A stretch of 64,000 nucleotides of DNA from Desulfobacteraceae bacterium (GTDB taxonomy: Bacteria; Desulfobacterota; Syntrophobacteria; Syntrophobacterales; Syntrophobacteraceae), in the NCBI GenBank assembly GCA_021372635.1, contig JAJFUA010000443.1, positions 86-64,085 of the forward strand. The letters are read 5' to 3'. This document shows, one piece after another, positions 16,217-61,164 of the stretch. Below the pieces are notes generated by a model. It made no database searches. It was not told the origin of the DNA and saw nothing but the letters and a program-made list of their open reading frames with translations. The translations under genes and the position numbers were made by a program. Position 1 is the first letter of the stretch, and the number at the start of each line of letters is the position of its first letter.

Positions 16217-16293
16217 CGGGACGTGGCTCAGCCTGGTAGAGCGCTGCGTTCGGGACGCAGAGGTCGCTGGTTCAAATCCAGTCGTCCCGACCA
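16217..16293 (+). tRNA. tRNA-Pro (anticodon CGG)
   Basis: The 7-bp acceptor stem CGGGACG/CGTCCCG is followed by discriminator A and an encoded CCA. D-arm GCTCAGCCTGGTAGAGC and the T-loop GGTTCAAATCC are present. The anticodon stem CTGCG/CGCAG carries loop TTCGGGA. Confidence 0.93.
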
Positions 16294-38211: not shown

Positions 38212-39159
38212 TTACTCGGAATTCCTTTTTACGATGCCGATGACGTTCGGTATGGGAAGGGCAAACTGAAGCGCGCCGGCGTCATCGAAGCCGGTCTCCA
38301 TGGATCCGTATTTTTCGACTTTGAAATCGCCGGAAGAGAGAAAAAGGGACGCCTGCGGCCCGCCTTCGAGATACATGGCGTTCTTGATGGACATGGGAAG
38401 CGACTGCAAGATCTCTATGAAATCGTGGACGGAATATGGCGAACGGGCGGAAAGGAAGAGCACTCTGCCATTCTCGTCCATGGCGATGGCAACGATGCTC
38501 CATTTCCCCTGCTGCTGGCTCCAGACGTTCTGCCCTCCGCAGGAGATCATCCGGATGCTCTGGACCAGCGTGTTGTATTTGCGCTTCAGGCTGTCCAGGT
38601 CCTGGCACTCTCGGTCTATAATCTGAACTTCGGGCAGGCCGGCTTCCACCGGGTTGAAGGCGAGCACAGTATTATCCCTGCCGAATCTGGGATTGTTGAC
38701 GTGGTTGTAGTTGCGCATGTATCCGACGCTCGTGAAGCCGTTTTCCTGGAACATGCCCGCATTGACCGCCGCCACGAGGTGAAATTCCGTGCACCATTCT
38801 TCGACCGTTCTCTTTTTTTTCCCGTACTCCGAAGAACACAGAAGCTTGAAGGCATAGAAACGGGGATCGATTCTCACTGCGGTGATCCTGGAGTCGCCCG
38901 CTTCGGATTTCAGCGGGGATTCGAACTCCGCTACGGACAATCCTTCATCCACCTGTTTCCAGGTGTTGTTTTCGGCTTCAATGAATCGAGGGGAATGCAA
39001 AAGAAGGAAGAGGGAAACAATGACTGCCACGGAGGAACGGAAGGCGATGGACAGGAAAAAACGGAAAGCCGCCGGAGGCGATTCGCCGGTGCCGGCCGCA
39101 TCGTGCCTCGGTAGTGCCGCTCCTTTGCCAGCCGTTTTTTCTCCGTAGACAAGAGCCAA
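38212..39159 (-). CDS. Phosphodiester glycosidase-like (NAGPA/DUF2233) protein with an N-terminal TM/signal anchor
   Basis: It has VAAVNAGMF, NNPRFGRD, SCGGQNVW, IVAIAMDENGRVLFL and NAMYLEGGPQASL, which match the family as I recall it. The start is a TTG and is uncertain. Confidence 0.65.
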   Translation of the reverse strand: MALVYGEKTAGKGAALPRHDAAGTGESPPAAFRFFLSIAFRSSVAVIVSLFLLLHSPRFIEAENNTWKQVDEGLSVAEFESPLKSEAGDSRITAVRIDPRFYAFKLLCSSEYGKKKRTVEEWCTEFHLVAAVNAGMFQENGFTSVGYMRNYNHVNNPRFGRDNTVLAFNPVEAGLPEVQIIDRECQDLDSLKRKYNTLVQSIRMISCGGQNVWSQQQGKWSIVAIAMDENGRVLFLSARSPYSVHDFIEILQSLPMSIKNAMYLEGGPQASLFLSSGDFKVEKYGSMETGFDDAGALQFALPIPNVIGIVKRNSE

Positions 39160-39451: not shown

Positions 39452-40798
39452 TTAAGAGTTGAAGTCCGGCGGGAATCCATAATAGAGAAAGTACAATTTC
39501 CGATCGCTGACCCCAAGGTGGTAGAGCAGCATCAGCAGATGATTCTTCAGCGACGTGCGCAGAATTCCTCCGTTCAGGTATTTTCGAGGGGACGCCTGCA
39601 TGACGAACGGGAGGCATTCCAATCGCCCAATCCGAAGACACCTGGAGACAAAATCCACATCTTCCATGAGGTATTCCCGCAGGAACCCACCGATTGCGAA
39701 AAAGGTTTCCCGCGAACAGAACAGGCCCTGGTCTCCGTAGGGAAGATGCAGAAGGCGCGTGCGTGTGTCGGCCCATTTCGCAATCAGGTCGAGGACGGGA
39801 GTGGACGGGGAGAAGGCAAGGTGGAAACAGCCGAGCGACGGGGAAGTGCCCAGGAGCGTTCTGCGGATATGATAGGCGAAGTTCGGAGGAGGAAGACAGT
39901 CGTCGTGCAGAAAAAAGAAAAAATCTCCCCGGGCGGTAAGCGCTCCCCGGTTCATCTGTTTTCCCCGGCCTCTGCGCGAGATGAGGCAGCGGGTCTTCGC
40001 GCTCACTTCGACAGGATCGGAAGGCCCCCCGTTGCCCGCACGGACGATGACGATTTCGTCCCCGGGCCAGAGTTGAGCTTCGAGAAGCCGTACCAGGGGG
40101 AGCAGGCGATCGATCGGGCGGATCGTGGGGATGATGACGGACAGCCTGGCTTGGTGGAACATGGGGATCGAATGGAAGAATGCAAGATCCTCCCGACGGT
40201 CCACATCCCGTCGGCAGTCCAGCGTTTGAACCGAAAAGCCGTCGGCCTCGAGGAGTTCCTTGGTTCGTGCAAATATACAGGCGGTTCCCCAGGATTCGGG
40301 GCGGAATGCGGAAGGCGAAGGACGATCCAGGCCGATGAGGTAGAAGCCTCCGTCCCGGGCGGGTCCGAGCACTGCCTGTCCGGAATCGAGAATCTTCAGA
40401 GCCGTGTGGAAATCCCCGGCTTGAATATCGGCGAGGTCTGTTCCTGCCAGCACCACACGACAAGGCCGACCGGCCGAAAGGACGCGGCGCACAGCCCGGT
40501 CCATGCGGTCGCCGAGATGCGAACCCTCCTGCGGGAAAAACTTCCAGGGCCCGGGAAAGGCAGCCCGCATATCATCTTCTTTGTCGAAGGGAGTGAAACA
40601 GACGTAAACTTCCGTGTCGGGCCTGGCCTTGCCGACCTCCGCAACGGTGCCCAGCGTTCTGCGGACCAGTTTTTCATAAACCGCGGAAGCTTCTTCTGGA
40701 GAAACGGCGACCGCCAGGCGGGATTTGACCTCTCCCGTCTCGGGATACCTCATGAAGATGATGATGGCATACCTGGGTGCAGCATTCATTCGGAGCGA
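39452..40798 (-). CDS. Fusion of a DUF2064-like (nucleotidyl/glycosyl) transferase and a family-2 glycosyltransferase
   Basis: The N-terminal half (AIIIFMRYPETGEVKSRLA...LGPARDGGFYLIG) is DUF2064-like. The C-terminal half (LSVIIPTIR...GRGKQMNRGA..A.GDFFFFLHDD) is GT2-like. The real start is ATG 40798 (MNAAPRY), not the 1,086-aa ORF start. Confidence 0.8.
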   Translation of the reverse strand, partial: SLRMNAAPRYAIIIFMRYPETGEVKSRLAVAVSPEEASAVYEKLVRRTLGTVAEVGKARPDTEVYVCFTPFDKEDDMRAAFPGPWKFFPQEGSHLGDRMDRAVRRVLSAGRPCRVVLAGTDLADIQAGDFHTALKILDSGQAVLGPARDGGFYLIGLDRPSPSAFRPESWGTACIFARTKELLEADGFSVQTLDCRRDVDRREDLAFFHSIPMFHQARLSVIIPTIRPIDRLLPLVRLLEAQLWPGDEIVIVRAGNGGPSDPVEVSAKTRCLISRRGRGKQMNRGALTARGDFFFFLHDDCLPPPNFAYHIRRTLLGTSPSLGCFHLAFSPSTPVLDLIAKWADTRTRLLHLPYGDQGLFCSRETFFAIGGFLREYLMEDVDFVSRCLRIGRLECLPFVMQASPRKYLNGGILRTSLKNHLLMLLYHLGVSDRKLYFLYYGFPPDFNS

Positions 40799-40821
40799 TT
40801 TTCCCGGAATGCCCGGCCGGG

Positions 40822-42786
40822 TCAATAGGCGATGTGTCCCAGCGACCGCATGATCAGGCTGAATCCCATGGCCAGCATCCCCATGAGACCCATGCCGCAT
40901 GAGAACCCGGCCAGCAGCACCGGGGCGTACTGCCCCCAGGCCAGTCCATACTTCTTTTTGAAGTAATACCTGCCCAGCAGGGCACCGACGATTTCGAGGA
41001 AAATCCCGTGAGGCGTCGATTGGCCGAGGCCGCGGGTCACGCCGTAGATGAGCATGATCGGGAGCTTGAACCAGGCGAGAACGCCATACGTCAGGAGTCC
41101 GAGTCCCATGCCCCAGCCCATGTACTGGACGTTGAGAGCCTGGAAGAACGGGGAACTTCCTTCGAGCGTCGCGCTTTGCAGGAGCAGAGTGTTCAGCGCC
41201 TGCAGGTGCCAGAGTTCCTGTGCATACGGGTACTGGTTGGAGGGAATCGGTGCGAGTCTCCATATGTACTGTGAAAACAGCAGACTGGCAACCAGCACGA
41301 TGGGAATCACCAGGATTTCCGCTTTGATGATGCTCCGGAAACTGGTCCCGGTAAGTTCGATTTCCCTCCACCTCACGGTGGATTTTCCGTAGTTGTGTAT
41401 CGGAATGGGTGCATACCATATTCCGATGCCCGTGTAACCGAAAAACCTGGAAGCTGCAATAAAACTCGCCTCGCGCACCATGGGCAGGCTCACGAACTGG
41501 CCGGCAATCCCCTCCATCCGGGCGGAAACATAGGAAATGACCGGGGTGTAGACAAAGCCGTAGGCGACGAGAAAAATCCAGGGAAAGCCGGGGACCAGCA
41601 GCGAGGAAAGAACGATGTAGGTGGTCGTGGAGCAGACGTAGATGCCGATTGCGATCCAGATGCTGAAATCGCCCCGCCCGGGATTGTGCCTGAAGAGCAC
41701 CTCGAAGCGTTCCTTTAACGATCCCTGGTAGGTCTGCCGGAAGCTTCTGAAAACGTGAAATATCCCTATGGCGGCAATGGCCAGTCCCAGCCCGATGCCG
41801 AAGCTCATATAGAAATCGAAGCTGTTGGCGAAAACGGTGTCGACGGTTCCCATGCCCTTGTGCCACCGGTGAAGGATGCCGTAGCTGTACAGGATCGGAT
41901 TGGCGATCAGAGTAACGATGAAACCGATGCCCCCCCCGATAACCGCCCAGAACGGGAGAACCATGCCCACGAAGAGAAGCCCCAGGTCCAACTGGATTCC
42001 CGTGGCGACGGCCGGAAGAACGTCTTCGGTTACGTTGGTCAGTTCGATCCAGGGAATCGGGAAAAGCCGGATGGGTTCGGAAAGCACCGTCGCCGATGCG
42101 GCCGGGAGCAGCACGTAGAGCGCACCGAAAGAGAGTCCGATCATGCCTCCTATGGAGAAGACCCGCCATTTCCAGCCGGATTCCTCCTTCCGTGTGGATT
42201 CCGCCAGCGCCATGTTCCCGAGCGCTCCCACGGGAGCCATGGGGAAGGGCAGCTTTTCGACATCCGAGGTGAGCCGGTACAGGGCATAGCTCAGTCCGAA
42301 GTGGTCCACTGCGGATATGATTTCGAATCCGACCATGAGGAGGATGGGGATCAGCCAGTCCCGGTGGAAGAAGGTTCGGTCGGTAAAGGATTCCGATCCG
42401 GGGGGCGGAGCGATCCAGGCGGGAATGTGCTGGGTCAGTCCGAGCATGCGGGCCGCTTCGGACTGTATGAGATACTGGTTCCACAGCAGCCCGGAAAAGG
42501 GAGACGCCAGCGCGGCGCCGGCCATGTAATAGAGTACGAAGATTTCCTGCTGGCTGAGCTTCGTGTAGGCTCTCTTCGCGATTTCCGCGAACAGGATGAT
42601 GGTCACCCACCGCGCCGCCGGGCCGATCCCGGTTCCCACCACCAGGCCGAGGTACATCGAGCCGGGCATCATGAGAAACCCGATGAAGATCGCCCCGATG
42701 ATGGATTTCCACCCGAAACCGTCTTCGAACTTGTCGGGCGGGCTCAACAGATCGCGGTATTCTTGTAGTTCCCTGTCCTCTTGCAT
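40822..42786 (-). CDS. Polytopic membrane protein (654 aa, more than 12 TM helices), distantly OPT-like
   Basis: ATG 42786 (MQEDREL) has GAGGAG upstream. The N-terminal SMYLGLVVGTGIGPAARWVTIILF resembles the OPT-family opening helix pair, and an EKLPFPMAPVG motif follows. Hydrophobic helices run throughout. Confidence 0.7.
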   Translation of the reverse strand: MQEDRELQEYRDLLSPPDKFEDGFGWKSIIGAIFIGFLMMPGSMYLGLVVGTGIGPAARWVTIILFAEIAKRAYTKLSQQEIFVLYYMAGAALASPFSGLLWNQYLIQSEAARMLGLTQHIPAWIAPPPGSESFTDRTFFHRDWLIPILLMVGFEIISAVDHFGLSYALYRLTSDVEKLPFPMAPVGALGNMALAESTRKEESGWKWRVFSIGGMIGLSFGALYVLLPAASATVLSEPIRLFPIPWIELTNVTEDVLPAVATGIQLDLGLLFVGMVLPFWAVIGGGIGFIVTLIANPILYSYGILHRWHKGMGTVDTVFANSFDFYMSFGIGLGLAIAAIGIFHVFRSFRQTYQGSLKERFEVLFRHNPGRGDFSIWIAIGIYVCSTTTYIVLSSLLVPGFPWIFLVAYGFVYTPVISYVSARMEGIAGQFVSLPMVREASFIAASRFFGYTGIGIWYAPIPIHNYGKSTVRWREIELTGTSFRSIIKAEILVIPIVLVASLLFSQYIWRLAPIPSNQYPYAQELWHLQALNTLLLQSATLEGSSPFFQALNVQYMGWGMGLGLLTYGVLAWFKLPIMLIYGVTRGLGQSTPHGIFLEIVGALLGRYYFKKKYGLAWGQYAPVLLAGFSCGMGLMGMLAMGFSLIMRSLGHIAY

Positions 42787-42853
42787 GATGCTCCTCGCCC
42801 CGCAGCCGGACTGCTCATTCACTGCAGAAGCCCGCTCCCGTCGTCGGGGAGTT

Positions 42854-44830
42854 TCACAGCGGCAGCACGTGGTAGCTGATCGGAGTCCAGAAACCCGCAA
42901 TCAGCCAGACGATGGCCATGATCATGTCGCCGAAGATCAAACCGACGAAAAAGCGCCTGACTTCCTTGTATCGGTTGGCCCCGCCGTATCTCAGGACCAG
43001 CGTGTTGCAGAGCCAGCCGACGAGGAAGCCGAACCAGAGGAGTTGCATCGCCGAACTGTACGCCGTGAGATAGCCTATGGGGTGGAGCGGCCACCAGATG
43101 AAATGATGATAGCCGGCGATCAGAAGGGACATCAACCCGGCACCGATCAGCATGAAAGCGATGCTCCATTTCTTCGGTTCCTCCGGATGAGTCAGCAGTT
43201 GCGCCGCGCTTTCATGGACCCTTCTGGTCGTCTCGACGGCCCAGTCGTCCGGGATGGAACTGATGCCGAACTTGTAATAGAGGACGAGCGTCGCCGCGAA
43301 GGAGACGATCAGGCCGAGCAGGATCGCCCAAAGGACTCCCCACAGAAATCTCCTGCGGGGTCGACTGCCCTCGGAGAGCGTGGACGAGTGGAAGAGCGAC
43401 GGTGAGAGGGATTCGCGAACATCCAGAAAGGCAACCTTCTGCACGATGAGACCCAGGTACAGGGTCACGGGGGCGATGATCCGCGTATCGAGAAACGCGA
43501 GGAAACCGTCGGAAGGGGCCACCGTGAGGGTAAAGTAAGGAAGGCCCCCCTGACAGACGAGCCTGGACGAGACCAACTGGATCATGAAGCATACGGCAAG
43601 GAAAAGGCACGCCGCAAGAAAGCCCATGCCGAAAAGGCAAAGCCAGAGGACCGCGCCGGCCAACCCGCCCGCAAAAAGGAACAGGGCCGGGCGCGGGGAA
43701 AGGAATCCACGGTAGTCGTCCGCCCCGGATTTCGAGAACACGGAGGCGAAGGTGAGCCAGAGATGAGTGCGCGCAAGCCACACGATGAAAAAGAAGAACA
43801 CGCCCAAGGCTCCGATCATCTGCATTTCCTCGGCCCTGGAGAGCACCGGGCCGAACGTCGTACCGACGGCGGCGGCGGGCAGACGCCAGCCCAGAGCCTG
43901 GGAAAGCCCGGGGGCCAGTCCGCCAAGAGCGAAGAAAAACCAGAGGCTGAAGGAAACCTGTCGGGACGTCAGGAAGGCAAACCCGATAAAAGCCGGGAAA
44001 ATGTAGATCTTCAACTTGGAGTATCCCGAAAGAAGCCCTTCCCTGGGAATGTAGGGCTGGGCAAGAAGCAGCGCAGGGATCTGGGGCACCTCGGGGAAAT
44101 ACGCATGCAGGCCGTTCAGCGTATGGAGAAGAACGGGGAGGGCGCAGCCGACGATAAAATACCTGTGTGTGAGAAACCGAAGAAGAGTCCGGTTTTCCGA
44201 CTCTTCGCCGAGGATCTCGGGGACGCGCAGAAGGGGGAAATTCATCTTTTCGTTCTCGATCCACTGGTGCGTGAAAAGCCCTACGAGGCCGAGCGTGGCC
44301 ATGTAGATCGACCCGATGAAAAGACCCCACCATGCCATGGGGACGAGCCATTCGCCCCATGAGACTGCGGCGGCGACATGCCACCAGGGCATATCCAGCC
44401 CGCCTTCCAGGCCGCTGTACAGGGCCTTGACTGTGGCGGGGTCCTTGGGAAAGATCGTCGACGGCAGGTAGGGCAGGAGGACCTGGGCCAGGTTGCTCGT
44501 CGTAGTGGTGAACCAGACGGGAGTGGTGATGTTGATGATGAACGTGCGCATCAACCCGGTGTAGGCGACGCCCGTGGAAACTGTGACCATGGACCAGACG
44601 AGCAATAATTCGTGCCGGTTGAAGCGCCATTCACGCCGAACGAGCGAAAGAATCGGGTTGAGGATGCCGAGCATGAACAGCAGCGCGGCAAACGAAGCCA
44701 GTGGGAAATGGCTGCCCCCCAGCGGACTGTTCTGTAGTTTTGCGTTGTTGTACGGACTGACGGCGCAGATGAACACAACGAAAACCAGGCCGGTCAGGAG
44801 CGCCGACAGCCGCAGCCGGGGCTCATTCAT
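42854..44830 (-). CDS. Polytopic membrane protein (658 aa, more than 12 TM helices), related in pattern to the downstream one
   Basis: ATG 44830 has GGGGGGA upstream. An EKMNFPLLRV motif sits at an equivalent position, and the C-terminal GLIFGDMI resembles the OPT GLIAGE motif. Confidence 0.7.
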   Translation of the reverse strand: MNEPRLRLSALLTGLVFVVFICAVSPYNNAKLQNSPLGGSHFPLASFAALLFMLGILNPILSLVRREWRFNRHELLLVWSMVTVSTGVAYTGLMRTFIINITTPVWFTTTTSNLAQVLLPYLPSTIFPKDPATVKALYSGLEGGLDMPWWHVAAAVSWGEWLVPMAWWGLFIGSIYMATLGLVGLFTHQWIENEKMNFPLLRVPEILGEESENRTLLRFLTHRYFIVGCALPVLLHTLNGLHAYFPEVPQIPALLLAQPYIPREGLLSGYSKLKIYIFPAFIGFAFLTSRQVSFSLWFFFALGGLAPGLSQALGWRLPAAAVGTTFGPVLSRAEEMQMIGALGVFFFFIVWLARTHLWLTFASVFSKSGADDYRGFLSPRPALFLFAGGLAGAVLWLCLFGMGFLAACLFLAVCFMIQLVSSRLVCQGGLPYFTLTVAPSDGFLAFLDTRIIAPVTLYLGLIVQKVAFLDVRESLSPSLFHSSTLSEGSRPRRRFLWGVLWAILLGLIVSFAATLVLYYKFGISSIPDDWAVETTRRVHESAAQLLTHPEEPKKWSIAFMLIGAGLMSLLIAGYHHFIWWPLHPIGYLTAYSSAMQLLWFGFLVGWLCNTLVLRYGGANRYKEVRRFFVGLIFGDMIMAIVWLIAGFWTPISYHVLPL

Positions 44831-44902
44831 AGGCAATCCCCCCGGATGACTTGCCAGGCGCGTCTTTTTGCAGGAAAACGGCGGACTGAGGTTCCCTCTG
44901 CA

Positions 44903-47900
44903 TCAATCATCCCCCCGAAGCGCGCTTTCGGCGGCGGCAATGGAGCCGCCGGGCAGCATTCGATCCGTTGCGGTGTCCTCAAACGATGCCTTGCCTTGAT
45001 CATCGAGAAGCCTCCAGAGAAGCATCTGCTTGCGAAGTTGCTTGACGAAATTCCTGTTTGCCCGAACCCATGCGGAACGTTCCCCGGAAATGCGGACCAT
45101 CCGGATCGCGATTTCGAGATACCCCACGTTGTCCATGGACGGGCAGCAGTGCAGTTGAAGGATCTGCTTGATGCCGAAATCGAACGGCGCCAGCCAGACG
45201 GTTGTCCGCAGAAGGAGGCAGGCCGGAGGAGGCGGAGCGGCGGATCCTCCGCGGGGTACATCGAGACTCATGGCGATTTCGTCCGTTATGAACGCCTCGT
45301 TCACCGTATCCTTGTGGGATGCGTAATAGGCGTGGAGAAAACCCATGACGCCATTTTCCTCTTCGCCTTTCAGGAGAAAGGGCAGGTTCATGACAATGGC
45401 GTCCCCTTCGGGTTCCGGTAGATTCCAGGAGTGGTTGACGTCGGGCATGGCTATCGTGGCGGCGACCCTTGCCGGGTAGAGAGAGGCGAGGAATACGACG
45501 GAGAAGACGAGGAACATGCAGGCGACGCTGGCGAGAGAGGAATAGTTGAAGGTGAGTTGGGAGAACAACGCGGTATGCCCGAGATATTTGGCGCTGAGTT
45601 GTGCCAGGATGTATCCGACGACGGTCGAGATGACCGCCATGGAGAGCGCTTCCACGATGAACAGAAAGGCCACGTGAGTGGGGGCGAGCCCGACGGAAGT
45701 ATACGTGGCGATCTCCCGCTGCCGTTCGTGAACGTGCCCGATCATCGTGTTCAAAGTGATGAAAATCACGATGAGTATGGGCACCAGCAGGTTCGCAGCC
45801 CCCTGGTAGCGAAGCGTCGAAACGGCGCTGTGGTACCAGGTACCGTTTTCTCCGACGAAAAGGGGATAGGCCAGCCAAGAGGAGAGCCGGTCTGCGGCCT
45901 TGAACGGGGAATCCCCATTCCGAGGAAGGACCGAAATCACCTTCAGAGCGCCCCCATGGCGGATGCAGGTTTTGAAGGGAACGATGACGGTCCTGTCCGC
46001 GCTCGCGTAGCGGAAGCGCTCCGATTGGGGCAGGACTTCCTCTCCGGATTGCATGGCCTCGATCTCCGCCTCGGAAGCCTCTTCGCCCTGCTTTATTTCG
46101 AGGAAGGACGGCAGAAAAGAGTTCTGATCGAGATCCTTGAGTGAATCGAGTACTGCCGCATCGAAATATCCGATCACTTTGAAAGGGTAGCCATCGATGG
46201 AGATGGAAACGTCGGAATCGCCCGCCGGATCGAGTCCCAGGCGCCGGGCGATGAAAACCGGCAGCAGGACCGCATCTTCTTCGCCCGGTTCGAACCATCG
46301 GCCGCGAACGATCGCGGATTGCACGCATTGCGGTGCCGCTTCTCCCATGCCCAGGATACTCTCCAGGGACGCGTGCCTCTCTCCCCTGAAAGCTCTTCCC
46401 ACCGTGCGCTCGGATGCATTGGGCGGTTCTATCCAGCCTCGAGGCCAGACTCTTTCGCCTCCGTCGGCAAACAGCGTCCGAACGCTCTCGAACGTCAGCG
46501 GGCCGAGCGAAAGGCGGTATTGATGATGGAGAAGGACCCCGTTATAGGAAGCGTCGTCCGCAATCCGAGTCCGTGCGGTCGAGTGCAGGCTCTTTACATT
46601 CGTGAAGGACATGACCGTAAAAGTCAGGATGACCAGGGTCAGACAACTGAGGCCGGTTCGCAGCTTTCTTCGGTTCAGGTTGGAAACGCCGATGGAGAAA
46701 CCCGCGCCGAAAGCCTGCCACTTCCCGTCTTGAGGGGTTTTCACCTGCGAAGCGTGTCTCCTCAACTCAGACATCTCCCGCTCGAATCTCATGAAGAGGA
46801 TCCACGACACCAGGAGCGAGAGTCCGACGATGAAAAAGGCGATGATGACCACCATGGGGCTGTAAGTCAACTGAAAGGCCGGGTTCAGAGATTTGATCGC
46901 AAGAATGGTGGCGACGAGAATCAGGAAAAATGCAGAAAGCTGCTGGTAAATGTTGCGGAAGGCGAACAGGAAGCGCTCGACGCAATATGCGAAGGGCACA
47001 AAAAGCGCAATGAAGAACATCACCCCGCCCAGCACGTCGCGCTGGGTGCTTTCCACTTCATTGTAAACGAGGTTCAGCCTGGCCCAGGAGGAAACGACGT
47101 GAGTCCAGAAATCTTCGTAGCGGTAACTGCCGATGTCTTCCGACGACTGCTTCAGGGTTCCGGAAGCATCCTGGAAAAGCGTCTCCAGGTGCCGGTTCAC
47201 GATGCCGTGCCGGGTAAGCCTTTCGATGCGCTCCCGGAGCAGGTGGTACATGTCTTGAGCCACCTGGAGGGGAACGACGGGAAGAATGGCGGGATCCCCG
47301 GCGAGAAATCCCCTTCCTTCCGGGTTCTCGCTCGTGCTGTTGAGAAGGAGAAGCTCTTTTCTGAGGAGCGAATCCGACATGACCAGTTTGAACCGGGTAC
47401 CCTTTTCGAGCAGGATCGATATGGCGGTAGTATCCCGCCCGTCCACCCTGGAAAACCAGTGGCGGAGCGGGGGGGCGCCTGTCACCGAATCGATGATGTC
47501 TGCCTTCGTGAGATAGCCGAGCGTTTGCGGGTTGAATGCCTGTATGACGTCGGTCTGCGTGCAGGGAAACATGACCAGCGACGTGCTGGCCGTATCGCGC
47601 TTTACGGCAAGCCTGTAGTTTACCTTGCCCGTCTTTACCTTGTCGGTCGCCCACGCAATGCGCCCAGAGGCCGGGTCCAGCCCGTAGGGTTCGACGATCA
47701 GCTTCTCCAGGGAAACGCGCCTGTTCGCGAGCCCAGGGATAAAGAACGATCCGTCGCGATGAACCATGGCCCGAAAAACCGAACTGCCCTGGATCACGGA
47801 AACGATTGTTCCTGGAGCGGGGCGGTCCGGAAAAAGCTCTCCCTGCCTGACGATCATGGCGCGGCCTTCCAGGCTTGCGAGGCCGGGGATTCCGCTTTCG

Positions 47901-49717
47901 GAAGCCAGGCGAAGGGATGGATGAGAAAATAGCCTGGTCAACAGGGGAGGGAGAAAGCGGGAGAGAGCGAGGAGGTTTGCCCGGTCCGTCCGATCTCCGG
48001 TATCGTGCGGCGTATTCCAGAAAGAGCGGTCGTCGTCCAGGCTCACGAGAGAAACGGCGGGAAGTCCTGCAAGTATCCCCACGTCACAGCAGGCACGCAT
48101 CGTGCCGGAAAACCGCGACGCATCGGTATCGGCAGAACTCCCCCGGACCCTGGTCCGGACAAGATTGGGCAGCCCCGTCGTTTCGGAAACCTCCGCGCCG
48201 GACTGGTTGAGAAAATTCAGCAGGCGCGTGGACCGTACGATCCTCCGCACGCTTTCGCGAACGGGGTAGGTATCTCCCATTTCCGCAAGTCCAATGGAAC
48301 GCGAATGAGAGGAAAGATGAAGGTTGAGGAAAAGGACCGGCTTGAATTCGTCCATCAGTTCCCTGAGCCTGACGCTCGATTCGATCGCACGCTCTCTGCG
48401 CTTGATCTCGTGCAGGCCGGCCTGCAAATCGGGTAAGGCGTCTCTGACGAGTTGCCGCGCGAGCTGCAACTGGATTGGTCCGAGCTGGGCAAGGCTGCCG
48501 ATGGCCGACAGATTGCGGTAAGGTTTGGGGTCCAGGGACGGGGGCATGCCCATCTGCCCCATAGCGTTGCGGTATTGTATCTCCCGGGCTAGATCGTCAG
48601 ACCGGTCCTTGGCCCTGTCTTCAACGAGCCGGGCAAGAAACTCGCGTTCCTCTCCCGACTCAACGGAAAACGGGTCTTCCTTTTGAGCCATCGCCAGCAG
48701 CCGGTCCGCCGCTCTTTTCTGTTTGCGAAGCTGCTTCGCCTCTCTCTGGAGATGATTGCTCCTCGCCGTTACGGACCAGATGAATTGACGCGTTCCCGCA
48801 ATGCTCTGCCCGTTGTTCACCGTGGCCAGGAAGAGGACCGGCCGCTCGGGGGGAGCCTCGGCGAGTTGCCTGACGAGCGAAAGTAATATGAGGATGGAGG
48901 AAGCTTCATCGGCTCCCGGTGCCGTGCCGAGAACAGGCGATGAGGAGTCGTAGAAGGCGTCCAGGACGATCAGTTCGGTTTTCAGATCGGGATTGCTGCC
49001 GGGAAGAAGGCCATAGCAGTTGCGCACCATTTTGTTCTTCCAGACCGCCGCCGATTTGACGGTCGCGCGGTATTCGCGGCTGTCGAGGGCGAGTCGCCTG
49101 AGTTCCGCTCCCGTTTCTTGGCCGACCCAGAACCGGGGAACCGCAATGGGCGTATTGGTCTTTTTGATGCCAAAATCACCGCTGACGGATTTGCCCGAAT
49201 CCAGAAACACGATGGCGCGCGCGCCCAGCATGGCCGCATTCAGCCATTTTTCCCCGGAGTTCATATCCATGAGAACGATGCTGTCCCGAATGGGATGCCC
49301 GTCCATTGAGGAGAAATCGCCGCTGCCGACGTAGATGAGAGTCCCGCCGACGCCTTCTCCGGGGGTGACCGGAAGATAGACGAGGTTCGGGCCCCAGGGA
49401 TAAACGGAGAACGTCTTCCCGGCGACTTCGAGGGAAGCGGAAACGAGTTGCGTGACGGGAGTCAGGAATTCCTGCGCTCCGACCTTCTGCAGCCCCGCAT
49501 CGGCGAAAACCTTCAGGATGTAGTCCGCGGCGAGGTCGCTTCCCGGCATCCCGGCCGAGCGGTCTCCGATGCCGCCGAGGAATGCTTCGTCTTCCGGATA
49601 GTACTGGGCGGAAGCTTCGCCGATGGGCACCAGCAGGAACATGAGAAAAAGCAGTGCGGCAATGGGGGCACTCAACACAGGAACGTGTGCTGCGGAGGAA
49701 GGTGCCCGGCCGGCCAT
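44903..49717 (-). CDS. Giant (1,604 aa) membrane protein: signal anchor, PA/M28-peptidase-like ectodomain (degenerate), carboxypeptidase-regulatory-like beta domain, 3 TM helices, MacB/FtsX-type permease module, cytoplasmic tail
   Basis: The M28-like blocks are DAFYDS, GADEASS, ATVNNGQS and WNTPHDT. A CarbopepD_reg-like segment is GTIVSVIQGSSVFRAMVHRDGSFFIPGL. The MacB-type module has a TM helix, an outer domain of about 270 aa, and three FtsX helices (ERQREIATYTSVGL). Its ATG shares one base with the ATPase stop. Confidence 0.8.
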   Translation of the reverse strand: MAGRAPSSAAHVPVLSAPIAALLFLMFLLVPIGEASAQYYPEDEAFLGGIGDRSAGMPGSDLAADYILKVFADAGLQKVGAQEFLTPVTQLVSASLEVAGKTFSVYPWGPNLVYLPVTPGEGVGGTLIYVGSGDFSSMDGHPIRDSIVLMDMNSGEKWLNAAMLGARAIVFLDSGKSVSGDFGIKKTNTPIAVPRFWVGQETGAELRRLALDSREYRATVKSAAVWKNKMVRNCYGLLPGSNPDLKTELIVLDAFYDSSSPVLGTAPGADEASSILILLSLVRQLAEAPPERPVLFLATVNNGQSIAGTRQFIWSVTARSNHLQREAKQLRKQKRAADRLLAMAQKEDPFSVESGEEREFLARLVEDRAKDRSDDLAREIQYRNAMGQMGMPPSLDPKPYRNLSAIGSLAQLGPIQLQLARQLVRDALPDLQAGLHEIKRRERAIESSVRLRELMDEFKPVLFLNLHLSSHSRSIGLAEMGDTYPVRESVRRIVRSTRLLNFLNQSGAEVSETTGLPNLVRTRVRGSSADTDASRFSGTMRACCDVGILAGLPAVSLVSLDDDRSFWNTPHDTGDRTDRANLLALSRFLPPLLTRLFSHPSLRLASESGIPGLASLEGRAMIVRQGELFPDRPAPGTIVSVIQGSSVFRAMVHRDGSFFIPGLANRRVSLEKLIVEPYGLDPASGRIAWATDKVKTGKVNYRLAVKRDTASTSLVMFPCTQTDVIQAFNPQTLGYLTKADIIDSVTGAPPLRHWFSRVDGRDTTAISILLEKGTRFKLVMSDSLLRKELLLLNSTSENPEGRGFLAGDPAILPVVPLQVAQDMYHLLRERIERLTRHGIVNRHLETLFQDASGTLKQSSEDIGSYRYEDFWTHVVSSWARLNLVYNEVESTQRDVLGGVMFFIALFVPFAYCVERFLFAFRNIYQQLSAFFLILVATILAIKSLNPAFQLTYSPMVVIIAFFIVGLSLLVSWILFMRFEREMSELRRHASQVKTPQDGKWQAFGAGFSIGVSNLNRRKLRTGLSCLTLVILTFTVMSFTNVKSLHSTARTRIADDASYNGVLLHHQYRLSLGPLTFESVRTLFADGGERVWPRGWIEPPNASERTVGRAFRGERHASLESILGMGEAAPQCVQSAIVRGRWFEPGEEDAVLLPVFIARRLGLDPAGDSDVSISIDGYPFKVIGYFDAAVLDSLKDLDQNSFLPSFLEIKQGEEASEAEIEAMQSGEEVLPQSERFRYASADRTVIVPFKTCIRHGGALKVISVLPRNGDSPFKAADRLSSWLAYPLFVGENGTWYHSAVSTLRYQGAANLLVPILIVIFITLNTMIGHVHERQREIATYTSVGLAPTHVAFLFIVEALSMAVISTVVGYILAQLSAKYLGHTALFSQLTFNYSSLASVACMFLVFSVVFLASLYPARVAATIAMPDVNHSWNLPEPEGDAIVMNLPFLLKGEEENGVMGFLHAYYASHKDTVNEAFITDEIAMSLDVPRGGSAAPPPPACLLLRTTVWLAPFDFGIKQILQLHCCPSMDNVGYLEIAIRMVRISGERSAWVRANRNFVKQLRKQMLLWRLLDDQGKASFEDTATDRMLPGGSIAAAESALRGDD

Positions 49718-50451
49718 CACACGACCTCGCCCACGGAAATCCTGAGCCTGTCACGATCCTCGACGCGATCGATCCTGCCGTCCCGTATCCAGACGACACG
49801 GTCGGAAACGTTCAGCATCTTGATATCGTGGGTGGCCGAAATGATGGTGACCCCCCGCTCGGTAGAGAGTTGTTTCAACAGGGTGATGATTTCCTCCCCG
49901 GTGGTCAGATCGAGGTTTCCCGTCGGTTCGTCCGCGAGGATGATGGCGGGGTCGTTGGCAAGCGCCCTGGCGACCGCCACCCTCTGCTGCTGTCCCCCCG
50001 AAAGCTCGGAAGGCTTGTGATGGTACCTCTCGCTCAGTCCGACGAGTCCCAGCAGTTCCATGCCCTTCTCGATATATTCCTCCCTGTTCATGCCGGCGAA
50101 AATCATGGGCAGGGTAACGTTTTCGATGGCCGTCATGACCTGTATGAGGTTGAAGGTCTGGAAAATGTATCCGATCTTTCTGCATCGCAGCCACGCCAGT
50201 TCGTAGGCGTCGAGTTGTGCGACATCCACCTCGTCGATAAAGACCCTGCCGGAGCTGGGTTTGTCGAGCGCCCCGATCATGTTGAAGAGGGTCGATTTGC
50301 CCGAGCCGGAAGGTCCCATGATGGAAAGGTACTCTCCCGCCCTGATGGAAAGATCGATGCCTTTGAGCGCTTGCAGTTGAACGCTTCCCATCCGGAAAGT
50401 CTTGGTGACTTCGGAGAGTCTGACCACGTTGTGCGTGCTGTCCTTGGCCAT
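49717..50451 (-). CDS. ABC transporter ATP-binding protein, MacB/LolD-like
   Basis: It has Walker A GPSGSGKST, the Q-loop, the signature LSGGQQQR and Walker B ILADEPT. I prefer ATG 50451 (MAKDS). Confidence 0.9.
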   Translation of the reverse strand: MAKDSTHNVVRLSEVTKTFRMGSVQLQALKGIDLSIRAGEYLSIMGPSGSGKSTLFNMIGALDKPSSGRVFIDEVDVAQLDAYELAWLRCRKIGYIFQTFNLIQVMTAIENVTLPMIFAGMNREEYIEKGMELLGLVGLSERYHHKPSELSGGQQQRVAVARALANDPAIILADEPTGNLDLTTGEEIITLLKQLSTERGVTIISATHDIKMLNVSDRVVWIRDGRIDRVEDRDRLRISVGEVV

Positions 50452-50508
50452 CGGAATCCCCACTCGATCCAGGGCCGCTCTTCGGGTTCCCGGCATGGCA
50501 CCCGGGTT

Positions 50509-51174
50509 TCACTGCTCCGCGCGCAGCGCCACCGCGGGCTGCATCTTCGCGGCGACGAGAGCAGGATAAATCACTCCCACGAGGGAAAGAAAAACGGCGA
50601 GAAGAGTCGACCACAATACGGTAAACATCACGTTCGCAGCCGGCCATGCGAGAATCACAGGCCATCCGAACTTCATGAGCATGACCAGGGTGGAAACGAT
50701 GATTCCGGAAAGGCTCCCGGCAAATCCCCCAAACAGGCCCTGGTATACGGATTCCAGGACAAAGATGCGTACGACGAAACTGTTGAGGGCTCCGAGGCAC
50801 TTGAAGGTGCCGATCTCCCGGAACCTTTCCGTGACCGCCATCAACTGTGCGTTGACGATGCCTACGACACAGACCAGGATGGAGAGAAGGGCCAGCCAGC
50901 GGTCTTTCGGACCGCTCCCGAATTGCCCGTTCAACTGTTCGAATCCGCTTGCAGCGATCTGCCCCTGCAAAGATTCATCCGCACTCGGCCATATGGCGTT
51001 CAAGATGTCGTAGCCGGACCACGTATAGGCTACGAAAGCCACGGCCAGCGACAGCGTGGCGGTGGTGATGAGGGAACGGAAAAGGCGTACCCTTATCGAA
51101 TTGAAGGAGATCTTGAAAACCTGTTTCCACGGCAATACGATTTGCCTCTGCACGGACTCGCGCACGGACTGCAT
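50509..51174 (-). CDS. Small FtsX-fold ABC permease (221 aa) with a minimal outer loop
   Basis: It has four TM helices. The FtsX-domain signature ERFREIGTFKCLGA lies between TM2 and TM3. Only about 45 aa separate TM1 and TM2. Confidence 0.75.
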   Translation of the reverse strand: MQSVRESVQRQIVLPWKQVFKISFNSIRVRLFRSLITTATLSLAVAFVAYTWSGYDILNAIWPSADESLQGQIAASGFEQLNGQFGSGPKDRWLALLSILVCVVGIVNAQLMAVTERFREIGTFKCLGALNSFVVRIFVLESVYQGLFGGFAGSLSGIIVSTLVMLMKFGWPVILAWPAANVMFTVLWSTLLAVFLSLVGVIYPALVAAKMQPAVALRAEQ

Positions 51175-51348
51175 CTCCACGTCCAGGGGATTTGATTCAA
51201 GTCCAAACGGCGAAGCCGGATAGGAATCGGGTTCCTGTCTCAGAGCGCGGCGGCGCAGGGTCTACAGGAGAAAATACCATCCCCGGCCAGGGACTTGACC
51301 CCGTGTGCACGCCGGCCTGCGAGGCGAACAATTACTCCCGCTCCGCTC

Positions 51349-51377
51349 AGTATATTTCACCGCGTAAAGCCGGACAA
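51349..51377 (-). promoter_or_regulatory. Sigma70-like promoter candidate for the ABC cluster
   Basis: The minus strand reads TTGTCC, a 17-nt spacer, then TATACT, about 165 nt upstream of the permease start in an AT-richer patch. Confidence 0.3.
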
Positions 51378-51845
51378 TAACAGAGATTTGGAAGACGAGA
51401 ACAGAATGTAAGAATTGTTGTGCTGCATTTCAATCGAAGAGGAAAAATCCGATGAAGATTTCCCGGAAGTCCTTTTATAATAGTTCGGGGCAAAGGGATC
51501 GGAATGGGCTGTTTCCAATAGAACCAACCCGTAAATGGATATGGGAAGGAAATGTCCCCGCTTGCCCGGATTCGTTTGCCTTTTACCCCGGACTTGACTA
51601 CCATCGACTGGAAGAGCGGGCCGGAACATGGCGAATTCCCGGAATTTTCCTCATGAACCCGCTTTCCCGTGGCGCCAGCACCGGCGGGAATGGCTCCCGC
51701 AGATTGCCGGTCATCCCCATGGGGCGACGATGCGGCGTGCCGAACGGGTGCTTGTTTCGAGCGATTCTGAATCGCCGGGGGGCCGGCCCGGAACAGGCTG
51801 TTGCGAAAACCCGGAAGGCAATAGGATATGGAGAGGGAAACCGAT

Positions 51846-52214
51846 ATGGAGAAGCGGAACTTTACGCGTATCATTTTCCACACCGAAGCCGCGGTCGTGA
51901 GCGGAGATCTTCGGATAAAAGGCGAGGTGGAAAACCTGAGCATGAACGGAATGCTCCTGCGAACGCCGGACCGCATTCCCGTAAGCGCGAACGCTCAAAT
52001 CAGAATCGTCCTCTCCGGGGCTTCACCCGAAATATCGGTGGAGGCGAAAGGGCATACCCTCAGGCACGAATCGGACGGGATCGCTTTTCAATTCGATGAA
52101 ATGGACCTGGATTCGTTTATACACCTCAAGAATATCATTGCCTACAACCGCGGGGACGATGGCGACGTCGCGGAAGAATTCGAAGGGTTGATCCACAGGA
52201 AAAAACAATCTTGA
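51846..52214 (+). CDS. Single-domain PilZ protein (c-di-GMP receptor candidate)
   Basis: RNFTR (RxxxR) is near the N-terminus and ENLSMNG (N-x-S-x-x-G) lies about 27 aa later. GAGAGGGA precedes ATG 51846. It is divergent from the ABC cluster. Confidence 0.75.
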   Translation: MEKRNFTRIIFHTEAAVVSGDLRIKGEVENLSMNGMLLRTPDRIPVSANAQIRIVLSGASPEISVEAKGHTLRHESDGIAFQFDEMDLDSFIHLKNIIAYNRGDDGDVAEEFEGLIHRKKQS

Positions 52215-52258: not shown

Positions 52259-53344
52259 CTAGTCGAGAGGGGGGCGTTCCTTGCCCGAAGAAATCCCCGT
52301 CTGTCCCACGCCGAAGATACAGAGTGCATCCGCGAGCAGTGCCCCCACGGTTTCGATGCGTTTCCTGAACGGCGTATTTCGTATGTATTGCCAGCGCACG
52401 TCCCCCTTATAGTGTTCCGGCATCTTCAGGTTGTAGACCACGGGGGCCTTGAGTTCCTTGAATCCGGCCGCGTGAACCCTCAGCCACGCATCGCCCGACG
52501 GTATAACGTCGGTCAGGTATTCCACCACAACCTGTCCGTTGTCGAATATCGTTTCCGTTGCTTTCCTTCCGGCATTGAAGTTGCCGACCGTGGCGTCCGG
52601 GACCACCTCGACGAGGTTCCAGCCCGCAAGGATGAGATTTTTTCCGGTGTGGTTCAGGCTCTGCGTGGTTCCCCCCAGGGCGTCCTTCAAGATGGCGTCC
52701 TTGAGCCTGGATGCGGAGTAGAGCAAACGCTGTCCGAACCCCTTTGGTCCTTCCGGCGAATCTGGATGATATGCGCCGAAACTCAGGGCCGAAGCGACGT
52801 TTTTTAGAAAACTCACGCACGATCCCATGAGACCTTTCTGCTTCGCTTCCTGAATGTCCCCGTTTTCATCCCTGTATCGAATCTTCGAGCCGAACAACAG
52901 GTTGCAGAAAGCGTTTTTCACGTTGCCGAAAACATCCGAAAGATCTTTCCCGATGCGCGCAAAGAACGACTTTTGTTCCCCGTTTTCCGCCGAGACCTGT
53001 TTCTTTTCCAGGTCGTAACGCTTTCCGCCCGGGTTTCTGAGCAGTTGGTCGTCCTTGTACTTTTCGTAGTCGCTCATCTTCTGCTGGCTCGCGGCAGACG
53101 CCTGCCGGATATAGGCCTCGTGCGCTTTCGAGTCGGGAATGGATGGCACGGGCGGAGAATGCTGGACCGGGGGCGTCTTGGCGGCGGGTTCAGCGCCTCC
53201 CGCGTCCACGTGCGCAGACGAAGGCTGCTGGTTCGCCGAATCGAGGAGAAGCTGGAAGTTTTCCTTCCCGGCGCTTTTGGGGGGTGGTTCTCCCGTCGGT
53301 TGTACCCCGGGAGAGGCTATGGATGAAATATCCGATGTCTTCAT
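52259..53344 (-). CDS. Hypothetical protein (361 aa), no recognisable domain
   Basis: ATG 53344 (MKTSD) is preceded by GAGGTG. The first 110 aa or so are P/A/S/Q-rich, and I see no TM helix or signal peptide. It lies 52 nt downstream of cydB on the same strand. Confidence 0.5.
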   Translation of the reverse strand: MKTSDISSIASPGVQPTGEPPPKSAGKENFQLLLDSANQQPSSAHVDAGGAEPAAKTPPVQHSPPVPSIPDSKAHEAYIRQASAASQQKMSDYEKYKDDQLLRNPGGKRYDLEKKQVSAENGEQKSFFARIGKDLSDVFGNVKNAFCNLLFGSKIRYRDENGDIQEAKQKGLMGSCVSFLKNVASALSFGAYHPDSPEGPKGFGQRLLYSASRLKDAILKDALGGTTQSLNHTGKNLILAGWNLVEVVPDATVGNFNAGRKATETIFDNGQVVVEYLTDVIPSGDAWLRVHAAGFKELKAPVVYNLKMPEHYKGDVRWQYIRNTPFRKRIETVGALLADALCIFGVGQTGISSGKERPPLD

Positions 53345-53396
53345 AACGGTCCCGTTTTCACCTCTGCATGCGTCGGACGAATGCAGCATGCAACGC

Positions 53397-54602: not shown

Positions 54603-54615
54603 ATTCGTTTCTCCT

Positions 54616-59284: not shown

Positions 59285-59296
59285 GGATATTCCTTG

Positions 59297-61117: not shown

Positions 61118-61164
61118 GCTCAAGTTCCTTCTCCCGTATTCAGGATGGCCGGCATTGCGATGGA

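Follow-up and report, generated by a model that had tools for sequence, protein, structure and literature searches.

The window, a 64,000-nucleotide stretch of DNA, carries on its minus strand six genes (A–F) that encode a small permease, an ABC ATPase, a giant permease fusion, two polytopic membrane proteins and a fused transferase. Do they form one system, has such a system been described, and in which direction would it move a substrate? An earlier note had read all six as a machine for the assembly, trimming or export of a glycosylated envelope or peptide product. Our analysis points to A–E as a five-gene membrane module of hundreds of bacterial species that has never been studied, in which a putative ATP-driven motor of the MacB type is combined with an inactive-peptidase domain and a pair of OPT-like proteins.

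Gene order and neighbours

The six open reading frames are all present (Table 1), and the domain calls made for the six proteins in the earlier note hold by Pfam, NCBIfam and hydropathy. The junctions are short. The A–B gap is the 57 nt given previously if B starts at MAKD, the stop codon of B and the ATG of C share base 49717 (TGATG) as described, and the gaps between C and D (72 nt) and D and E (67 nt) were correct; the gap between E and F measures 32 nt and not 23 nt. No hairpin terminator is found in any A–F junction, as had been reported; the terminator-like hairpins listed lie within coding sequence and occur at chance frequency. The sigma70-like promoter proposed upstream of A can be placed at 51377–51349 (9/12 matches), but such sites occur at chance level (9 observed, 5.2 ± 2.1 in shuffles).

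Table 1. Positions of the genes A–F and of the parts of C in the window
Feature	Position	Strand	Length or start	Assignment and evidence
A	50509–51180	−	223 aa from GTG; 221 aa from ATG at 51174	small FtsX-fold permease; Pfam FtsX E 2.4e-16
B	49717–50496	−	likely start 50451 (MAKD), 244 aa	ABC ATPase of MacB/LolD/FtsE group; Pfam ABC_tran E 1e-33
C	44903–49720	−	1605 aa	intact ORF
C ectodomain	47039–49603	−	aa ~40–894	family profile matches to PA+M28 proteins
C three-TM-helix block	46781–47038	−	aa ~895–980	hydropathy
C MacB-type module	45452–46657	−	aa ~1022–1423	Pfam FtsX E 4.8e-12
C C-terminal domain	44906–45451	−	aa ~1424–1605	conserved WLAPFDFG and RKQxLxWR motifs
D	42854–44836	−	658–660 aa	polytopic membrane protein; Pfam DUF6785 E 1.2e-143 and DUF6784 E 1.2e-32
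E	40822–42786	−	654 aa	OPT/YSL-fold membrane protein; AF2 model and Foldseek
F	39452–40789	−	445 aa; ATG at 40789	DUF2064-like + GT2 fusion; Pfam DUF2064 E 2.3e-28, GT2 E 5.4e-7

The arrangement of A–E is beyond chance because the same order is seen in dozens of independent genomes. Homologues of C (63 clusters) are encoded by at least 595 species genomes and found on at least 565 metagenome contigs. Among Desulfobacterota loci with enough flank, 63 of 69 have homologues of A and B ahead of C, and D and E both follow C in 57 of 62. The proposal of a unit conserved outside this genome stands for five of the six genes, with the order A-B-C-D-E kept across Desulfobacterota. A distant branch, which includes an Armatimonadetes metagenome-assembled genome (MAG), has the order C-E-(300-aa protein)-PqqD-like-A-B; the gene set is kept while the order differs between branches. 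E lies directly after C in 39 of the 57 metagenome loci with room, and in two loci (L087, L088), where E is about 27–49% identical to that of the window, the coding sequences of C and E abut or overlap. In several distant loci (L084, L085), C is accompanied by D and/or E with A and B not nearby; C may therefore work without the B ATPase, or with one encoded elsewhere. Some further loci (L086, L098, L099) hold C without D or E.

The transferase F, which had been counted as a member, follows E in only 5 of the 58 loci with room (L007, L008, L009, L011, L074), all of them in Syntrophobacterales. F is a lineage-specific downstream neighbour outside the conserved core, possibly co-transcribed with A–E. 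It fuses the two 'arsenosugar biosynthesis glycosyltransferase' families, passing the cut-off for TIGR04282 (165 bits, cut-off 134) and just missing that for TIGR04283 (173 bits, cut-off 182). Unlike in arsenosugar systems, radical-SAM ArsS or ArsM genes were not seen among the F neighbours scanned. Some link to sugars is nevertheless possible, since unrelated glycosyltransferases precede the cassette in other orders (GT28_C-like in 47 loci, GT4 in 29).

The most telling accessory genes, overlooked in the earlier note, encode PqqD-like peptide-binding proteins (24 Desulfobacterota loci) and a 300-aa zinc-ribbon family (31 loci); neither is found in the 64-kb window. M16 peptidase pairs lie immediately upstream in L003 and L090, and single M16-like reading frames are present in L089 and L092. 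The cassette of L085 contains an Asparaginase_2 gene, and a SBP_bac_3 protein is encoded between D and E in Pseudodesulfovibrio.

The ABC proteins A, B and C

A has four TM segments by hydropathy. Only about 41 aa separate TM1 from TM2 (a short outer loop of ~45 aa had been predicted), so that A has no periplasmic core domain. Its NCBIfam matches to LolC/E, MacB and FtsX models are weak and far under the curated cut-offs. In B, the Walker A, signature, Walker B and H-loop motifs read from the sequence are all intact. In NCBIfam, B scores highest with the MacB NBD (231 bits), LolD (227 bits) and FtsE (209 bits), all under the equivalog cut-off, and by homology B appears to be an active MacB/LolD-type ATPase.

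C is 100% identical to NCBI MCE5245200.1, a 'FtsX-like permease family protein' from a Syntrophobacteraceae MAG, and Pfam identifies PA, partial M28 and FtsX domains. The ectodomain consists of a PA + M28-like part (aa ~26–320 plus ~540–600), a helical insert (aa ~320–470) and ~300 aa that are unassigned; aa 315–900 have no Pfam match even at E 1. The family profile matches the PA+M28 aminopeptidases 2ek8 (E 7e-21) and 6hc6 (E 1e-19). Further matches, seen by profile only, are to transferrin receptor, nicalin and nicastrin (E 3.5e-8 to 0.04). Of the zinc ligands of M28, the first His appears in the alignments as F, Y, M or N, the Glu-Glu pair as NN, HF, GH and similar, and the last His as N or D; the bridging Asp varies. 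The earlier description of C as a pseudo-peptidase is borne out: the zinc ligands are lost throughout the family and the domain is catalytically dead. As it cannot bind the catalytic zinc ions, the ~850-aa ectodomain on its PA/M28 scaffold is predicted by homology to be a binding module of the transferrin-receptor/nicastrin/nicalin kind rather than a protease. Those membrane proteins share the scaffold and the loss of zinc ligands; unlike C, they are eukaryotic, single-pass and not fused to an ABC permease.

Three TM helices follow the ectodomain and precede the MacB-type module; conservation of this block in alignment A1 is strong, with motifs such as PF..ER and HPAF. The MacB-type module has the order TM1, ~260-aa periplasmic core domain, TM2–4. 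The profile matches the MacB structures 5lil, 5gko and 5nik across the periplasmic domain and TM2–4, YtrF, LolF and LolC are matched in addition, and the segment searched in isolation matches MacB_PCD (E 6e-4). With the FtsX match (Table 1), these agree with the claim that C holds its own MacB-type permease module; by homology, C but not A has a MacB-like periplasmic core domain. The C-terminal domain, predicted from TM topology to be cytoplasmic, has invariant columns in alignments A1, A7 and A9 and is without match in Pfam and PDB sequence searches. The PADLOC model PDLC01991 ('CARF_m8--CARF_LolE_TM') matches C over aa 844–1462 (E 5.8e-49) and extends to residue 1500 of 1529 in an Armatimonadetes homologue; PDLC01990 ('...Beta-galactosidase_LolE_TM') matches with E 4.6e-24. 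Homology to the C-terminal half of C is clear, and part of the family has thus already been catalogued computationally. These models differ from C in having other or no ectodomains, and their labels are model names without assigned function.

By homology, A and C provide FtsX-fold transmembrane modules of the type VII ('mechanotransmission') ABC class, and near-obligate co-occurrence makes a heteromer of A, C and two copies of B plausible. The ATPase subgroup and the four-helix FtsX fold are those of MacAB-TolC, LolCDE, FtsEX, YtrEF and BceAB; C resembles MacB in the core domain between its TM1 and TM2, and the small and large permeases beside one ATPase gene recall the layout of LolC/LolE/LolD. 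Unlike MacAB-TolC, the cassette has no membrane-fusion or TolC partner among the neighbours scanned. It is also set apart from Lol, FtsX and MacB by the equivalog scores and the bare A, and from the type VII class by the ectodomain, extra helices and C-terminal domain of C and by its obligate neighbours, which are OPT-family proteins.

The OPT-like proteins D and E

The own sequence of E has no Pfam match, but 22 of 54 diverse relatives match Pfam OPT (PF03169). The AF2 model of E (pLDDT 86.6, pTM 0.87) is closest in Foldseek to barley Yellow Stripe 1 (7wst, 7wsr; E 1.8e-11, TM 0.64–0.70), with a sequence identity of 13–14%. NCBI names for E are 'peptide transporter' or 'OPT/YSL family transporter'. 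The D and E families align in hhalign over 582 columns (probability 98%, E 2e-13); D, itself without PF03169 match, is from this comparison a full-length remote homologue of E and a remote OPT-superfamily member. Both proteins of ~655 aa are accordingly OPT-superfamily permeases, in line with the earlier description as OPT-like. The median identity of E to other orders is 72%, the highest among the membrane proteins of the set and nearly that of B (77%; C, 37%), which is compatible with an unvarying small substrate or with close contacts to other proteins. With 1073 representatives at 50% clustering, the E family is small, and C is present in every sampled context.

Characterised OPT proteins carry out proton-coupled import of oligopeptides or metal-chelate complexes; to our knowledge all are importers, and we know of none that works with an ABC system. 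We found neither a characterised system nor a paper or curated family that accounts for the A–E set, in agreement with the earlier note; the sole earlier trace is the PADLOC model CARF_m8--CARF_LolE_TM.

Possible functions of the cassette

Our preferred reading, to which we give a probability of roughly 40%, is that A–E encode a single inner-membrane system, conserved and so far uncharacterised, in which a type VII ABC mechanotransducer and OPT permeases together serve a peptide-like or chelate-like ligand, likely in uptake. The proposed coupling of A–C with D and E is drawn from gene neighbourhood, and we infer the substrate and the direction, of which the sequence gives no sign. Two copies of B would power an A:C (or C2) pair and so move the C ectodomain, which would capture or release a periplasmic ligand; a small molecule resembling a peptide or a chelate is probable. 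The ligand would pass the inner membrane via E and/or D; in relatives, the cytoplasmic PqqD-like and 300-aa zinc-ribbon proteins would receive or deliver it. F would be a Syntrophobacterales add-on. Uptake is preferred because characterised OPT proteins are importers, and the PqqD-like, 300-aa, M16, Asparaginase_2 and SBP_bac_3 genes add a supporting peptide theme. The recurrent glycosyltransferase neighbours (GT28_C-like, GT4, F) count against uptake, which leaves them unexplained, and the name of the PADLOC model, hinting at a CARF-like sensor in the C family, would speak for regulation more than for plain transport.

The glycosyltransferases would be at home in a machine for export or envelope assembly, the view of the earlier note, which we do not favour over uptake and consider unlikely. 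The neighbouring glycosyltransferases and, in relatives, the PqqD-like and 300-aa proteins would make a glycoconjugate or glycosylated peptide in the cytoplasm; it would cross via D/E, and the ATP-driven ectodomain would then push, trim or mount it in the envelope, handling cargo as MacB, LolCDE and LptBFG do. MacB-type systems expel periplasmic cargo. Besides F, a same-strand run of GT28_C-like, two GT4, His_Phos_1 and DUF2334/deacetylase-like genes directly upstream of A (Desulfobacterales, Maridesulfovibrio) and a GlmU-like gene downstream in Pseudodesulfovibrio fit this scheme, and PqqD-like proteins usually belong to pathways of peptide maturation (a lasso-PqqD model of NCBIfam matches, under cut-off). 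However, the glycosyltransferase sets vary by order, the second branch has M16 peptidases instead, F is rare, and none of the characterised OPT proteins is known to export. The neighbourhoods examined showed neither a precursor-peptide gene nor a flippase, a polymerase, an outer-membrane component or a membrane-fusion protein.

Somewhat less probable again is that there is no single machine; A-B-C would be a pump of the MacB type for efflux or resistance, and D/E would import peptides in the ordinary way and share the operon by chance. The evidence for coupling is gene neighbourhood throughout, NCBI labels E a peptide transporter, and the loci L086, L098 and L099 have C but neither D nor E. 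Against this, C–E adjacency is kept across phyla and at 27–47% identity, with coding sequences abutting or overlapping, the small E family has C in all contexts sampled, and the gene set outlasts shifts in order.

The dead M28 ectodomain could also have the role of EnvC, the degenerate peptidase of FtsEX, and switch a periplasmic hydrolase on and off under ATP control while D/E import the released peptides or muropeptides. By analogy, the logic of ABC ATPase, FtsX fold and catalytically dead peptidase domain is shared; L086 has an Amidase_3 gene immediately ahead of its C gene, and a NAGPA-domain gene is found downstream in the window and near C in L003. We regard this as improbable: no hydrolase is consistently linked (a NAGPA homologue in 0 of 83 Desulfobacterota loci, an amidase in one locus), FtsX equivalog models give 18–24 bits with cut-offs of 225–255, and division or cell-wall genes are not near the cassette within the window.

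A defence-type membrane effector gated by the C-terminal domain of C as a CARF-like or other ligand sensor is very improbable, as no CRISPR, cyclase or other defence genes were found in the neighbourhoods examined, D and E have no PADLOC match, and the order, which nearly every Desulfobacterota locus sampled retains together with a partner of high conservation, resembles core physiology; in its favour are the matches of PDLC01991, a model named after CARF, to C and to P0060 (E 5.3e-61, including most of the C-terminal domain), and a 2306-aa variant (P0063) with C-terminal WYL/WCX sensor domains.

Gene layout and conservation of the five-gene core

ORF calling places A–F on the minus strand of the window as six head-to-tail open reading frames, confirming the six same-strand genes read by eye in the earlier note. 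The spacing reported there is also right for A and B (57 nt), C and D (72 nt), and D and E (67 nt), as well as for the stop codon of B and the ATG of C, which share base 49717; the gap between E and F is 32 nt, not 23 nt. As had been observed, no junction contains a hairpin terminator (matches in the terminator scan are at chance level). The proposed promoter-like site exists, as one of nine matches in a promoter scan, a number at chance level. No stop codon interrupts the frame of F in the 641 codons before its start, so ORF lists made mechanically include a spurious ORF of 1086 aa (39452-42712, minus strand) composed of F and this open stretch; it overlaps E in another frame and was rejected as a gene. 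The sequence of C matches a protein from a Syntrophobacteraceae MAG at 100% identity, which places the window in that lineage. The only hit in an Rfam scan of the window is a tRNA at 16217-16290.

Position, strand and assignment of the six genes in the window
Gene	Position	Strand	Assignment
A	50509-51180	(-)	four-helix FtsX-fold protein
B	49717-50496 (likely start 50451)	(-)	ABC ATPase
C	44903-49720	(-)	modular giant membrane protein
D	42854-44836	(-)	DUF6785 + DUF6784 (Pfam)
E	40822-42786	(-)	OPT/YSL fold
F	39452-40789	(-)	DUF2064-like + GT2 fusion

A scan with an alignment of C over one genome per GTDB species gave at least 595 confirmed relatives. The loci annotated by ORF calling and phmmer are those of the best 80 of these at least 595 relatives, all from Desulfobacterota, and two located by exact look-up. 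In this sample, 63 of the 69 loci with enough flank have A and B immediately upstream of C, and 57 of 62 have D and E downstream of it; the order of the five core genes is thus conserved outside this genome. Only 5 of the 58 loci with room have F after E, and all 5 belong to close Syntrophobacterales relatives. The interpretation of the earlier note is thus partly supported: the core A–E is a real and conserved unit, and F is a lineage-specific neighbour.

A metagenome scan seeded on the Armatimonadetes type of C gave at least 565 relatives and a second arrangement, C-E-(300-aa protein)-PqqD-like-A-B; a third is D-C-E. Among the matches listed, E is located directly after C in 39 of 57 metagenome loci with room. 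In two related loci (L087 and L088), E relatives with 27–49% identity follow the C homologue immediately, and the coding sequences abut or overlap. The gene set is kept across phyla while lineages differ in its order, a pattern that classically marks a functional module. Cultured carriers include Syntrophobacter fumaroxidans, Desulforhabdus amnigena, Desulfonema ishimotonii, and Pseudo- and Maridesulfovibrio species, and the module appears to be common in the sampled Desulfobacterota loci. We have high confidence in the composition of the five-gene core and in its reality as a module, which is widespread and uncharacterised. No function has been assigned to it, although at least 595 species-level genomes encode a C relative; DUFs make up two of its parts, and one (E) has no Pfam family. 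A search of the available literature found nothing on DUF6785/DUF6784, PF20581/PF20580 or this gene combination.

The MacB-type motor and the M28-like ectodomain

A matches Pfam FtsX (PF02687; E 2.4e-16) and has four TM helices by hydropathy, with a spacing of only ~41 residues between TM1 and TM2. B matches ABC_tran (E 1e-33), and its Walker A, signature, Walker B and H-loop all read as intact in the sequence. The top NCBIfam models for B are MacB NBD, LolD, DevA and FtsE, none of which reaches its equivalog cut-off. C comprises, from N- to C-terminus, a signal anchor, an ectodomain of ~850 residues, three TM helices, a MacB-type module and a C-terminal domain of 180 residues (1+3+4 TM by hydropathy). 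The module matches FtsX (E 4.8e-12) and aligns to the structures of MacB (5lil, 5gko and 5nik), YtrF, LolF and LolC, which bears out the MacB-type permease recognised earlier within C. Between TM1 and TM2 of the module is an insert of ~260 aa with a weak match to the periplasmic domain of MacB (PDB alignment of aa 997-1186; E 6e-4 to MacB_PCD, below cut-off).

The first 320 residues of the ectodomain match the PA+M28 aminopeptidases 2ek8 (E 7e-21) and 6hc6 (E 1e-19); matches to the transferrin receptor, nicalin and nicastrin are weaker. The Pfam match to M28 spans only model positions 1-77 of 193. In an alignment of 13 diverse homologues and in HMMER alignments to the active enzymes 2ek8 and 6hc6, every zinc-ligand position is replaced and variable: the His by F/Y/M/N, the Glu-Glu pair by NN/HF/GH/KS, the bridging Asp by E/N/S/Q and the last His by N/D. 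The term 'pseudo-peptidase', used earlier for this protein, is consequently correct for the whole family. Judged by the zinc ligands (His, Asp, Glu, Asp/Glu and His) and the catalytic Glu, C is rejected as an active M28 aminopeptidase. Neither aa 315-900 nor aa 1425-1605 matches a Pfam domain as an isolated segment. The C-terminal domain is conserved and predicted from the topology to be cytoplasmic; it has no relatives in Pfam or in a profile search of PDB sequences.

B belongs to the ATPase subgroup of the type VII (MacB-type) ABC systems, and A and C share their four-helix FtsX fold; the cassette would work like a MacB-type system, and we rate it as a type VII ABC system whose fused and linked parts are novel. 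MacAB-TolC has an adjacent MacA/HlyD membrane-fusion protein and an outer-membrane channel; neither turned up in a Pfam scan of the neighbours of the cassette in the window or among the genes called in the related loci L001-L003 and L084-L086, and this assignment was rejected for the missing partners. The LolCDE models score far below their cut-offs (lolCE, 43.9 bits for A and 15.3 for C against 362; LolD, 226.6 for B against 307.75). Bce-type peptide-resistance systems combine the ten-helix BceB with the BceRS two-component system, whereas A has 4 TM helices and C 1+3+4, and no two-component pair is conserved beside the cassette in the window or the Desulfobacterota loci. Equivalog scores and partner genes thus place the set in none of the characterised pathways the earlier note had named as possible homes, lipoprotein release and Bce-type resistance. 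The gliding-motility ABC system was set aside on account of its permease GldF, which we take not to be FtsX-type.

D and E as members of the OPT superfamily

E itself has no Pfam match, including to OPT (PF03169). Its family comprises 1073 representatives at 50% clustering, and 22 of 54 sampled members match PF03169 (best E 1.3e-17). A first AF2 model, from a shallow alignment of 73–100% identity, was unusable (pLDDT 37) and was replaced by a confident one from a diverse alignment (pLDDT 86.6). The only significant PDB neighbours of this model in Foldseek are two structures of barley Yellow Stripe 1 (HvYS1; E 1.8e-11, probability 1.0, TM 0.64–0.70). D is composed of DUF6785 and DUF6784 in Pfam. 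Direct BLASTP between D and E finds nothing, a profile search of PDB sequences gave nothing useful for either protein, and a comparison of thin profiles is weak (probability 2.7%). With deeper profiles of the two families, the relationship becomes visible over the full length (hhalign probability 98%, E 2e-13, 582 columns). As E belongs to the OPT superfamily by fold and PF03169 homology and D by full-length homology to E, both ~655-aa proteins are members, as had been guessed. OPT-family permeases are almost unstudied in bacteria.

Compared with proteins from other orders, B and E have median identities of 77% and 72%, and C, D and A 37–47%. A value so close to that of the ABC ATPase indicates unusually strong constraint on E for a putative nutrient permease. 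The identity of E across orders suggests that its substrate in anaerobic sulfate reducers and syntrophs is important and fixed.

Possible mechanism and neighbouring genes

Homology shows a type VII ABC motor together with two OPT-fold permeases and an ectodomain of the non-catalytic M28/PA receptor type. In MacB, LolCDE and FtsEX, conformational change is relayed to periplasmic domains. We propose that two copies of B would drive an A:C (or C2) pair and that the conformational change would be passed to the ectodomain and the putative periplasmic core domain of C. The ectodomain would bind a ligand in the periplasm for transport across the membrane by E and/or D. We put the probability of this mechanism as a whole at about 0.4. 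Uptake of a peptide-like or chelate-like molecule is favoured because the characterised OPT members, all of them to our knowledge importers of oligopeptides or metal chelates, work in this direction, because the PqqD-like domain is a peptide binder and because the conservation of E fits a fixed substrate, which might be a metal chelate or a factor derived from a peptide. Cooperation with OPT-family permeases would, if the parts act jointly, add to the repertoire of type VII ABC systems, which today comprises efflux, lipoprotein release and control of cell-wall hydrolases. A stronger form of the proposal, which we consider unlikely, has A–E as one physical complex, in which the ATP-driven MacB-type motor would use the dead-peptidase receptor to load or gate the OPT-family secondary transporters; the cargo, taken up or released, would be a dedicated molecule of chelate type or derived from a peptide, with the PqqD-like protein as its cytoplasmic chaperone. 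No earlier case is known of an ABC mechanotransducer coupled to a secondary transporter, and such a complex would be the first.

Export or assembly of a glyco-product, which the earlier note had favoured, is an alternative supported by the glycosyltransferases that recur beside the cassette. In Desulfobacterales and Maridesulfovibrio, genes for a GT28_C-like protein, two GT4 proteins, a histidine phosphatase, a second GT28_C-like protein and a DUF2334/deacetylase-like protein precede it on the same strand, and a 207-aa protein, a 300-aa zinc-ribbon protein and a PqqD-like protein follow. HMMs of these families (GT28_C-like, GT4, His_Phos, DUF2334, 207-aa, 300-aa and PqqD-like) find no homologue anywhere in the window. 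The ~300-aa family, which has a CxxC zinc-ribbon motif and conserved Trp residues (L013-L083 and L090-L157; for example, L114 17090-18657), has no relatives in Pfam or PDB. Its gene accompanies the cassette in two bacterial branches that are distant from each other, usually with a PqqD-like gene next in line. In the second branch, a pair of M16 peptidase genes lies before C in both L003 (Armatimonadetes) and L090, and L089 and L092 have single M16-like ORFs. Single loci have an Asparaginase_2 insert (L085), an SBP_bac_3 insert (Pseudodesulfovibrio) or Amidase_3 upstream (L086). Peptides and sugars are the recurring accessory themes. Clustering of ORFs of 18–110 aa for a conserved small precursor peptide gave only shadow ORFs inside conserved genes.

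C could alternatively be a ligand-gated effector. The only prior trace of the cassette is a PADLOC/CARF census model, PDLC01991 'CARF_m8--CARF_LolE_TM', which matches the C-terminal half of C (aa 844-1462, E 5.8e-49); the name CARF_m8 reportedly stems from Makarova et al. 2020. The C-terminal domain in isolation matches neither CARF nor a PDB entry. A C variant with WYL and WCX sensor-type domains also suggests an effector. This 2306-aa protein (P0063, L086 7655-14575) carries them in ~700 extra C-terminal residues. It has no D or E neighbour and adjoins Amidase_3, a beta-helix protein and two secretin genes. A second PADLOC model, PDLC01990 'CARF_m8--CARF_Beta-galactosidase_LolE_TM' (1791 positions), matches the MacB-type module of C (E 4.6e-24), which suggests sister families with the same membrane module and a different giant ectodomain.

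A regulator of a hydrolase, similar to FtsEX-EnvC, is a further alternative; membership in FtsEX itself was rejected, with FtsX models at 18–24 bits against 225–255, FtsE at 209 against 264.85 and no division genes adjacent in the window. Mere co-location of independent transporters is a less likely alternative, given a gene set that is kept while its order is shuffled.

Several neighbours in the window lie outside the proposed module. F is a fusion of TIGR04282 (165.2, above the cut-off of 134) and TIGR04283 (173.4, just below 182). On the same strand, 293 nt downstream of F, a 315-aa protein (38212-39159) has a NAGPA (phosphodiester glycosidase) domain; a NAGPA gene is also found near C in L003, and there is none in 83 Desulfobacterota loci. 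It is followed by a 243-aa PilZ protein (37180-37911, minus strand, Pfam E 3.3e-7). Both were rejected as parts of the unit, having no homologues in the related Desulfobacterota loci. On the other flank of the cassette, a 128-aa ORF, PilZ-like by eye, is located upstream of and divergent from A (51828-52214, plus strand). The cytochrome bd oxidase genes (53397-56007) are closely followed by a 376-aa ORF (52259-53389, minus strand), which has a coding-like codon GC pattern and no Pfam match. An HSP70-like gene pair (56420-61123, minus strand), of which the 954-aa member has a DUF3731 'DnaK-related' C-terminal domain, looks unrelated to the cassette.
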